From Escherichia coli (GTDB lineage Bacteria > Pseudomonadota > Gammaproteobacteria > Enterobacterales > Enterobacteriaceae), in the NCBI RefSeq assembly GCF_009931435.1, contig NZ_CP043414.1: 64,000 bases of DNA; one strand, given 5' to 3'. A program made the position numbers and the translations under genes. This document shows, piece after piece, positions 58,216 to 59,775 of this stretch (position 1 is its first letter; every line of letters begins with the position of its first letter). Below the pieces are notes generated by a model. That model saw only the letters and a list, made by a program, of their open reading frames with translations. It was not told the DNA's origin and ran no database searches.

Positions 58216-58663
58216 TCAGTGCCTTTAAATGCTTTTGCCACACCATTGGCCACGGCTATTCCGGTATATTCCCAGTGACGATTGTCCAGCCAGATAGCGG
58301 CGGCGATATCATCAACGGAATCCTGACCATGCGGTAAATAATGACGGCGGAGAATTAAATATTGTTCGAGTCCATTCCTTTCAATTTCATGGACTCGCTT
58401 TGTCAGTTTTTTACTTCAATTTCCAGTTCAGGCGCATAAATATCATTTACTTTGCCAACCAGTTGAAGCGCTGCACCCGGACGTTTTAATACTTCTGCCA
58501 GTGCTTCTTTACTTTCCGTTGCCACAATTCGCGTCAGATAGTTATGTGCCGGGGCAACTTTATTATCCATCGCCATTTCATTAATAAATTTGTTGTAGGC
58601 AGTCTGATTTGGCTCAAAAACAATATCAACACCACAAACACACAGTTTAATTTGTTCCATCAC
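58212..58663 (-). CDS. Tail assembly chaperone (gpE/gpG-like, 86 aa) with predicted -1 frameshifted extension (E-prime/GT-like, about 145 aa fused product)
   Basis: Zero-frame ORF 58403..58663 ends ...ELEIEVKN-stop; the last codons form the slippery heptamer A AAA AAC immediately before the TGA; the -1 frame is then open for 60 codons and stops at a TGA overlapping the tape-measure ATG. Confidence 0.55.
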
Positions 58664-58946
58664 TCATACTCTCTCTTAAATTAATTTCGTCCACTAACTG
58701 ATTATGACGCGCAGCACACTGCCCATAAATTTCAGGATAAATTGTCAGTAATTCCGCTGCATCTTTTCCTGTCGTACCGTTCAGGCGCGGCAGCTGCGTT
58801 GTGCATTTAGTTTTCAGGTTTTCCTGATAACGCACGTTCGGTACCGGCTGCGGCGCTGTTGTACATGCTGACAAACTCATCAGACAGACAACGATTGGTA
58901 AAAACGGGCTTAAGTATTTCCGTGCGTATCTCTCGCGGTGCCACAT
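58647..58946 (-). CDS. Rz1-like outer-membrane lipoprotein (o-spanin)
   Basis: ORF in a different frame overlapping the 3' part of the Rz-like gene; lipobox LSAC after a hydrophobic segment; Pro-rich mature region. Confidence 0.55.
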   Translation of the reverse strand: MWHRERYARKYLSPFLPIVVCLMSLSACTTAPQPVPNVRYQENLKTKCTTQLPRLNGTTGKDAAELLTIYPEIYGQCAARHNQLVDEINLRESMSDGTN

Positions 58947-59145
58947 TTTTTAACGCCTCCAGTTTATCTTCCAGCGCTCTGGCCGAATCACTGGCAATAC
59001 CCTGCATTGCTTTTCGCGATTCATTACCGGCCACCTGCGCCGCTGTATTGATTGCCAGCTCTAAGCTGTCACGCCGCCAGTCAGCAGTCAGCCAGCCCCA
59101 GACAAACGCCAGCGCCACCACAACCAGCCACTGCCCGCTGCTCAT
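58807..59145 (-). CDS. Rz-like inner-membrane spanin (i-spanin)
   Basis: 112-aa; N-terminal TM (WLVVVALAFVWGWL) followed by a charged helical periplasmic domain; immediately downstream of the endolysin. Confidence 0.6.
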   Translation of the reverse strand: MSSGQWLVVVALAFVWGWLTADWRRDSLELAINTAAQVAGNESRKAMQGIASDSARALEDKLEALKNVAPREIRTEILKPVFTNRCLSDEFVSMYNSAAAGTERALSGKPEN

Positions 59146-59486
59146 CAGCGCACCCCGTTATGTTCCAGACTGAAATGATTGCCATCCGGTCTGGATTTGA
59201 AGCGTCCGCCCCAGGCACCACCCAGTGATTCCCAGTATTCCCCCAGAGGCAGATAATCTTCTGTGCGGGTTTTGTACTGACCGTTCACGAACAGATTGAA
59301 ATCCACCGCCAACCGCTGGGTGTGCAGACTGTTAGAAATGCCGCTGCCTTTCTTCGCATTCAGCGCGGCCTGTTCTGGTGTACGGTAAGCCTCACCGAAC
59401 GTCAGTCTGTAGCCATGTTCTTCTGCCCAGTGGATCAGACTGGCCACCATGACTGTGAATAATTGCTGTTTTTCACTCAGGATCAT
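59145..59486 (-). CDS. Endolysin, peptidase M15 (L-alanyl-D-glutamate peptidase-like)
   Basis: Start placed at MILSEKQQLF (113 aa); zinc-ligand motifs SLHTQRLAVD and DGNHFSL match the M15 S-x-H...D / H pattern; overlaps the holin stop. Confidence 0.7.
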   Translation of the reverse strand: MILSEKQQLFTVMVASLIHWAEEHGYRLTFGEAYRTPEQAALNAKKGSGISNSLHTQRLAVDFNLFVNGQYKTRTEDYLPLGEYWESLGGAWGGRFKSRPDGNHFSLEHNGVR

Positions 59487-59775
59487 TTGTCTTGCTCCCG
59501 TTCTGCTTTCCCGCTGCACGTCTGCGCAGCCACACTTCCACCGCCTGATAACCGGCAATCCCCAGCGCCGCCCCCAGCCCTTGAATGGCCAGCGGGCTGG
59601 CATCCGGGATCTGAATCAGCACCGCCCCGGCCACCACTGAAACCAGACTGCCCAGGATCACGCGACCAGCAAACAGGCGCGGCGTGATGGGGTCATTACT
59701 GGTCAGCACATTGCCGATGGCAATCAGTGCGCCAATGATCAGCAGTGAATAAAGGCTCTTTTCATGCTCCTGCAT
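59473..59775 (-). CDS. Holin (three predicted TM segments, charged C-terminus)
   Basis: 100-aa ORF MQEHEKSLYSLLIIGALIAIGNVL... immediately upstream of the endolysin. Confidence 0.6.
   Translation of the reverse strand: MQEHEKSLYSLLIIGALIAIGNVLTSNDPITPRLFAGRVILGSLVSVVAGAVLIQIPDASPLAIQGLGAALGIAGYQAVEVWLRRRAAGKQNGSKTNDPE

Follow-up and report, generated by a model that had tools for sequence, protein, structure and literature searches.

In phage P2, the lysis genes follow the order L-X-Y-K-lysA-lysB-lysC-R-S (NC_001895), which places the cassette between X and R/S and upstream of all other tail genes. By the annotation of the O operon, they too lie inside a late structural operon and have no promoter of their own. 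The HP1-like viruses, another branch of the same family, have been recognised since at least 2009 as a separate genus whose tail genes are not those of P2 (PMC2771037). In Haemophilus phage HP1, hol and lys are the genes named in the lysis slot, with an Rz-like spanin after them. The HP1-like group, which includes phages K139, phiO18P, F108, phi3, and C5a, has a late backbone made up of head-tail adaptor, tail terminator, tail completion, sheath, tube, lysis, chaperone, tape measure, DUF2590, and baseplate J genes. Closest to the locus described here are the ESSI2_ev phages, which were isolated as infectious temperate coliphages (PMC6969025).

The locus is a group of four small lysis genes in a 64,000-nt stretch of Escherichia coli DNA (contig NZ_CP043414.1), referred to below as the window. 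The order of genes in the window differs from that of P2 and agrees with the HP1-like branch, whose late backbone it shares, so it is unusual only when P2 is the standard. The four genes very probably make up the late-lysis cassette that is normal for an HP1-type prophage of the Peduoviridae, here a Quadragintavirus/ESSI-2-like one in the E. coli chromosome.

Identity of the prophage

The 2 kb of the window between positions 58300 and 60300 match Escherichia phage ESSI2_ev040, a Quadragintavirus of the Peduoviridae, with 95.9% nucleotide identity. Identity to Cronobacter phage ESSI-2, a Seongnamvirus, is 75%. Over the same interval, identity to the trio ESSI2_ev040, ev129, and ev015, in which the lysis genes are gp11-gp14, is 95-96%. 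The gene order is identical to that of ESSI2_ev040 from the terminase small subunit through the tail fibre genes, and most of the late genes are 98-100% identical to it at the protein level, in a window that holds only part of the prophage. The holin, Rz, Rz1, chaperone, and tube proteins are 96-100% identical to those of ESSI2_ev040. P2-family capsid and terminase genes are combined with HP1-type tail genes in HP1 order, the tail set being defined by a DUF2586 sheath, a DUF2597 tube, DUF2590, and baseplate J; this is the combination that marks an HP1-type member of the Peduoviridae.

Among 5426 complete E. coli genomes, 38 carry the region, each in one copy and always in the chromosome, and 8 of these 38 copies are at least 99% identical to it. 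A copy with 99.9% identity in NZ_CP106924 (strain MFDS1016424) belongs to a complete prophage between mntR and mntS, with an integrase, a repressor, a CII-like gene, a replication endonuclease, an ogr/Delta-like gene, and all of the morphogenesis genes. The left flank of the window agrees with that strain, as ldtB, ybiR, and mntR are found at 43860-46420. A low-GC 411-aa open reading frame (ORF) at the end of the prophage had no match in PADLOC or PHROG searches.

The late genes and the lysis cassette

The late genes of the phage form a single unbroken run on the minus strand, from about 64000 to about 49000 in the window. In the order of transcription, the features are as follows:

63928-63224, minus strand: terminase small subunit, the first gene
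63071-62568, minus strand: head-tail adaptor
62571-62065, minus strand: tail terminator
62068-61361, minus strand: tail completion
61364-60237, minus strand: sheath, DUF2586 type
60240-59785, minus strand: tail tube, DUF2597 type, upstream neighbour of the cassette (PHROG 1182 'tail protein', 2.7e-75)
59775-58647, minus strand: four small lysis genes between tube and chaperone, itemised in the next four lines
59775-59473, minus strand: holin, 100 aa, P2 gpY family (PHROG 175 'holin', 1.8e-39)
59486-59145, minus strand: endolysin, 113 aa, M15 (LAS-type) zinc peptidase (Pfam PF13539 Peptidase_M15_4, 1.5e-10)
59145-58807, minus strand: i-spanin, Rz equivalent, 112 aa (PHROG 1152 'Rz-like spanin', 2.9e-35)
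58946-58647, minus strand: o-spanin, Rz1 equivalent, 99 aa (PHROG 2425, 7.4e-33; PHROG 456 'Rz-like spanin', 1.1e-6)
58660-58403, minus strand: tail assembly chaperone, gpE analogue, downstream neighbour of the cassette (PHROG 1214, 2.1e-40)
58412-58406, minus strand: slippery heptamer AAAAAAC in the chaperone gene
58412-58212, minus strand: -1 frame extension of the chaperone, gpE' analogue
58215-56248, minus strand: tail tape measure (PHROG 28, 1.5e-103)
after the tape measure, minus strand: DUF2590 gene, baseplate J, tail protein, tail fibre, and fibre assembly
after fibre assembly, minus strand: two further genes
50724-49021, minus strand: baseplate/hub gene

The profile matches of the cassette genes and their neighbours are far beyond chance. 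The tube protein has 100% amino acid identity to that of ESSI2_ev040 and 47-71% to those of HP1, K139, phiO18P, and others, while the tape measure is 98% identical to its ESSI2_ev040 counterpart. The chaperone is named 'putative tail assembly chaperone' both in the ESSI2_ev040 record and by PGAP. In HP1, K139, phiO18P, phi3, and C5a, the sheath, tube, and tape measure are 30-63% identical to those of this prophage.

The holin has the features expected of its class: it is a small protein with membrane-spanning segments whose C-terminus is charged (RRRAAGKQNGSKTNDPE, from the translation), and the endolysin gene is adjacent to its own. Strong hydrophobic segments are seen at residues 8-25 and 34-55, and a weaker third one at about 61-83. 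The Pfam family PF04550 covers the protein over model positions 1-86 of 86 (7.2e-39), and in a tblastn search P2 gene Y is 54% identical to it over 90 aa (E 3e-30). P2 also carries lysA, which has no equivalent in this cassette, and its endolysin K shows no sequence match to the M15 peptidase found here. A search of NCBIfam returned no family for the holin, the endolysin, Rz, or the chaperone.

The endolysin starts at an ATG at 59486 with GGGAG 8 nt upstream. The PF13539 match spans model positions 4-69 of 70, and the protein also matches PHROGs 1768, 465, and 2649. A longer ORF of 152 aa that begins at 59603 was rejected since it overlaps the holin gene and the listed homologues are almost all 113 aa; it is an artefact of a frame that stays open across the 3' end of the holin gene. 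The length of 113 aa is shared by nearly all of the 120 best-scoring homologues, which are 81-99% identical to this endolysin and come from Salmonella, Serratia, Hafnia, Yersinia, Klebsiella, and other hosts, in a family of 2972 clusters. Across 24 homologues, H55 and H104 are invariant and D62 is at least 90% conserved, giving a zinc motif of the form H-x6-D ... H. These three residues, which we take to be the zinc ligands from established knowledge of the M15 family, align with the H, D, and H of Ply500 (SNHNYGVAVD ... PHF).

A single-sequence search of the PDB found no match for the endolysin at E 0.01, and at E 10 it returned a weak Ply500 match plus spurious ones and nothing else. When a profile of the 24 homologues is used, three of the best four PDB matches are L-alanyl-D-glutamate peptidases: Ply500 of Listeria phage A500 (2VO9), the best at E 0.0076, and 8Q2G and 2MXZ at E 0.11 each. 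An alignment-based AlphaFold model (pLDDT 82.6) has as its top Foldseek entry the L-alanoyl-D-glutamate peptidase of RB49, at a nonsignificant E of 0.24. Membership in the M15/LAS group is thus drawn from the Pfam match and the motif, with fold evidence that is consistent but weak, and the profile matches, weak as they are (E 0.0076 to 0.11), suggest that the bond cut is most likely L-Ala-D-Glu. The known enzymes of this type, Ply500 (2VO9), T5 (2MXZ), RB49, and LysB4 of Bacillus phage B4, are only 11-19% identical to this endolysin and are 129-185 aa long compared to its 113 aa, and it has no cell-wall-binding domain. It also lacks a hydrophobic N-terminus and has neither a signal nor a SAR sequence, so its release should depend on the holin.

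As a separate observation, this is a very small and highly conserved family of M15 endolysins, and no PDB entry is close to it in sequence.

The spanins have the features of a two-component pair, that is, an anchored i-spanin and an o-spanin with a lipobox in an overlapping, different reading frame. P2 lysB and lysC share this overlapped architecture. The Rz protein has an N-terminal hydrophobic anchor at residues 3-23. The Rz1 gene, whose ATG at 58946 is preceded by GGAGG at 8 nt, is read in another frame and covers the final 140 nt of the Rz gene. Its product begins with a basic part and a hydrophobic stretch, followed by an LSAC lipobox (Cys28), which is kept as LSAC, MSGC, or TSGC in ESSI2_ev040, ESSI-2, vB_YenM_324, and SI7. 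The match of Rz1 to the NCBIfam model P2_Rz1/LysC is weak and falls below the model cutoff.

Much of this had been proposed in an earlier, sequence-only reading. The ORFs and their PHROG and Pfam matches bear out the four-gene cassette of holin, M15 endolysin, and Rz/Rz1 at 59775-58647 on the minus strand, and the neighbours matched by PHROGs 1182, 1214, and 28 confirm that it lies between the tube and the chaperone/tape measure. Profile searches uphold the holin call (PF04550, 7.2e-39) as well as the choice of a small M15 metallopeptidase rather than a lysozyme as the endolysin (PF13539, 1.5e-10). The placement of Rz1 in an alternative frame over the 3' end of Rz agrees with the 140-nt overlap and the conserved lipobox, and the P2 order given in that reading is the one recorded in NC_001895.

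Transcription and the proposed lysis pathway

The genes of the cassette are packed tightly. The tube stop and the holin start are 9 nt apart, and from there on the genes overlap: holin and endolysin by 14 nt; endolysin and Rz by 1 nt, with the Rz ATG sharing one base with the endolysin stop codon; Rz and Rz1 by 140 nt; and Rz1 and the chaperone by 14 nt. Next, the stop codon of the predicted chaperone frameshift product overlaps the ATG of the tape measure. This spacing leaves no room for separate transcription signals in the cassette. A scan for the sigma-70 consensus found no promoter-like site on the minus strand within the cassette or immediately before it, and the scanned region has no more promoter-like sites than shuffled sequence would be expected to give. 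A terminator scan near the cassette returned nothing above chance. The late activators of P2 bind sites of the type TGT-N12-ACA, and none of these is present between 57614 and 64000.

The cassette, for which neither a promoter nor a terminator signal was seen, would be transcribed as one part of the long operon of late structural genes. The late promoter that drives it is probably upstream of the window end, in the same manner as the P2 lysis genes are part of the O operon; because the operon promoter is outside the window, co-transcription is something we infer. The timing of lysis would then be set by the triggering of the holin and not by transcription.

Lysis by phages of gram-negative hosts follows a textbook sequence: once the holin has opened holes, the peptidase gets out through them and breaks down the wall, after which the spanins disrupt the outer membrane. 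This cassette would probably carry out lysis in a like manner. The gpY-type holin would build up in the inner membrane and open holes at the triggering time. The cytoplasmic 113-aa M15 peptidase would cross these holes and cleave the peptide stems of the peptidoglycan, with L-Ala-D-Glu the most likely target bond. Disruption of the outer membrane would then fall to the i-spanin, anchored in the membrane, and the o-spanin, a lipoprotein.

Position of the cassette in HP1-type phages

Homologues of the tube gene are found in 76 phage records, and the annotated neighbourhoods were read in nine genera. In all nine, the lysis genes come directly downstream of the tube and are followed by the chaperone and then the tape measure: Haemophilus phage HP1 (Hpunavirus), Vibrio phage K139 (Longwoodvirus), Aeromonas phage phiO18P (Bielevirus), Cronobacter phage ESSI-2 (Seongnamvirus), Yersinia phage vB_YenM_324, Pseudomonas phage phi3 (Phitrevirus), Salmonella phage SI7 (Irrigatiovirus), Pseudoalteromonas phage C5a (Catalunyavirus), and Escherichia phage ESSI2_ev040 (Quadragintavirus). 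No mention of vB_YenM_324 was found in the papers searched. By tblastn, homologues of the sheath, tube, and tape measure are present in every one of the nine phages. Of the eight besides ESSI2_ev040, seven match the chaperone and seven match DUF2590, and the flank identities to these eight range from 28% to 82%. Since the placement is the same in nine genera whose flanking genes are homologous at only 28-71% identity, the slot between tube and chaperone is ancient, and the position appears to be ancestral and conserved in the HP1-type lineage rather than the product of a recent rearrangement. At least one HP1-related group is an exception: the Pseudoalteromonas ACA phages are reported to have no lysis module at the tube-chaperone position (PMC10612066). 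The historical side of this account, that is, the HP1-type layout as an established one, draws on annotated records, PMC2771037, and PMC10612066.

These comparisons overturn the view of the sequence-only reading that the arrangement matches no reference, given the annotated order in nine of nine HP1-type genera. That reading had itself allowed that the order would be unremarkable if it were the norm for a described phage genus, and the synteny comparison with P2 and the nine HP1-type genera finds it to be standard in a described group. The arrangement is already known, in a known phage genus. Because the placement of the lysis genes is the standard HP1-like layout, the finding is an ordinary one and its biological significance is slight. 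A layout that is odd against P2 but standard in the HP1-like branch of the same family calls for no rearrangement flag.

Contents of the slot

The contents of the slot are more variable. Among the nine phages, the holin, endolysin, Rz, and Rz1 of this prophage are matched by tblastn only in the four enterobacterial genera, and these lysis genes have no tblastn match in HP1, K139, phiO18P, phi3, or C5a. The endolysins of the latter five are lysozyme or muramidase types of 150-195 aa. A DksA/TraR zinc-finger gene is an additional occupant of the slot in K139, phiO18P, phi3, and C5a, and phiO18P has a DNA methyltransferase there as well. Even against ESSI2_ev040, the endolysin gene stands out: its nucleotide identity is 83.5% (85% for the protein), compared to 97-99% for every flanking segment. 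The endolysin protein is 91% identical to that of ESSI-2, while the products of the neighbouring genes are 58-82% identical. The endolysin gene thus looks like a local mosaic patch. With homologous flanks and exchanged lysis genes, an old slot in a fixed position has come to contain a mosaic, which is how phage lysis cassettes usually behave and is not new.

Alternative readings

The suggestion of module shuffling in the sequence-only reading can be split along these lines. That the genes in the slot are exchanged between lineages holds, and is well known; the slot itself is old and conserved. Taken in its strong form, the suggestion is that the lysis cassette was recently transplanted into the tail operon of this one lineage, creating a novel arrangement. 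The order is indeed unlike that of P2, and the holin is 54% identical to P2 gpY, yet the flanking tail genes show no similarity to P2 at the BLAST level, so the history of the cassette differs from that of its flanks. Phages of Haemophilus, Vibrio, Aeromonas, Pseudomonas, Pseudoalteromonas, Yersinia, Salmonella, Cronobacter, and Escherichia all have lysis genes in the same place, between flanks that are homologous but divergent. The part of this explanation that concerns placement can be counted as refuted, and the explanation as a whole is extremely improbable. It is also very unlikely that the prophage is defective and the cassette a decaying leftover that has lost its lysis function. In favour of this, the window spans just part of the prophage and this copy is known from its sequence alone, but the four ORFs are intact with ribosome-binding sites, they are 96-100% identical to those of the isolated phage ESSI2_ev040 (85% for the endolysin), and the residues of the catalytic motif are invariant or nearly so. 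The 99.9% identical copy in strain MFDS1016424, moreover, sits in a complete prophage that has its integrase, repressor, replication, and all morphogenesis genes.

Another proposal refines the reading of a normal HP1-type cassette and does not compete with it. Here the slot is a conserved exchange site, and the M15 allele of this prophage was gained by a recent gene-sized recombination. On balance this is the likelier course of events. The lysis genes of HP1, K139, phiO18P, phi3, and C5a have no BLAST similarity to those of this prophage despite homologous flanks, the slot has taken on zinc-finger and methyltransferase genes in other genera, and the drop in nucleotide identity to ESSI2_ev040 is confined to the endolysin gene. 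However, holins and spanins are small membrane proteins that may have diverged beyond detection by BLAST, and the endolysin family is very conserved, with 81-92% amino acid identity across the Enterobacterales, so part of the pattern reflects constraint and not transfer. A broader version, in which unrelated lysis genes and accessory cargo have repeatedly replaced one another in the slot and the 113-aa M15 allele moves between enterobacterial genera by gene-sized recombination, is evenly poised between acceptance and doubt. If it is true, the 83.5% patch inside a 97-99% region would be one such recombination event.

Predicted chaperone frameshift and annotation

The chaperone gene of this HP1-type prophage carries the slippery heptamer near its 3' end. 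No stop codon interrupts the -1 frame between the heptamer and a TGA at 58214-58212, and this TGA overlaps the start codon of the tape measure (ATG at 58215). A -1 fusion product of 149 aa is predicted from this arrangement, and the frameshifting itself would be of the same -1 type as that annotated for P2 E/E'.

The by-products of the analysis are corrections to annotation, one for the o-spanin and one for an ORF called DUF6890. PGAP treats the -1 extension of the chaperone as a separate 'DUF6890' ORF and leaves the frameshift site unannotated. In bacterial genome annotations, both spanins are labelled hypothetical. The o-spanin is shortened to 62 aa in RefSeq phage records and in PGAP prophage calls, by which the lipobox is lost; the ESSI2_ev040 record, for example, lists it as a 62-aa hypothetical protein without a lipobox.

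The endolysin gene of the lysis cassette stands out as a local mosaic patch when its nucleotide identity to Escherichia phage ESSI2_ev040, an isolated close relative of the prophage, is considered.

Window 59145-59472: endolysin gene, local mosaic patch

Identity to ESSI2_ev040 is 83.5% across this gene and 97-99% in each flanking segment. The encoded protein is nearer to the endolysin of Cronobacter phage ESSI-2 (91% of amino acids), even though ESSI-2 is otherwise much more distant than ESSI2_ev040. One of the endolysin homologues, a 198-aa gene call on one ENA contig (P0001), carries a holin domain (PF04550) and an M15 domain (PF13539) in a single protein. 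It is 99% identical to the window endolysin, and the joined call is probably a frameshift or gene-calling artefact over the 14-nt overlap.

In other phages, the slot between the tail tube gene and the tail chaperone and tape-measure genes holds additional genes.

K139, 5462-5671: small DksA/TraR-type zinc-finger gene
phiO18P, 5466-5675: small DksA/TraR-type zinc-finger gene
phi3, 4944-5153: small DksA/TraR-type zinc-finger gene
C5a, 4969-5169: small DksA/TraR-type zinc-finger gene
phiO18P, 6038-7114: DNA methyltransferase, between holin and endolysin

In all four phages, the zinc-finger gene comes first after the tube gene. The window lacks it, and the methyltransferase that separates holin from endolysin in phiO18P is likewise missing from the window.

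Public annotation misses parts of this region.

Window 58647-58946, minus: o-spanin, full ORF, 99 aa
ESSI2_ev040 RefSeq record 9348-9536, E. coli prophage copy (PGAP) 20348-20536 and Yersinia phage vB_YenM_324 5895-6083: o-spanin as annotated, 62 aa
Window 58412-58212, minus: slippery heptamer and open -1 frame extension of the tail chaperone

The public o-spanin start is placed past the lipobox, giving the 62-aa protein. The full-length ORF is preceded by a ribosome-binding site, GGAGG, and encodes a signal peptide with the conserved lipobox. PGAP labels i-spanin and o-spanin alike "hypothetical protein." At the end of the chaperone gene lies the classic slippery heptamer AAAAAAC (58412-58406), past which 64 further codons are open in the -1 frame, with a TGA stop overlapping the tape-measure ATG. 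From this sequence, a -1 frameshift is predicted to yield a 149-aa fusion protein resembling gpE', the corresponding product of phage P2. In PGAP annotation the extension is an ORF of its own, named "DUF6890 family protein"; the phage records carry no annotation on this stretch.

Two further ORFs lie between mntR and the baseplate/hub gene, at the prophage's left end.

Window 46825-48060, plus: 411-aa ORF, in a 36% GC patch
Window 48590-48844, minus: 84-aa ORF, near the 411-aa ORF

Both are labeled hypothetical by PGAP and had no match in PADLOC and PHROG searches; they may be accessory cargo.
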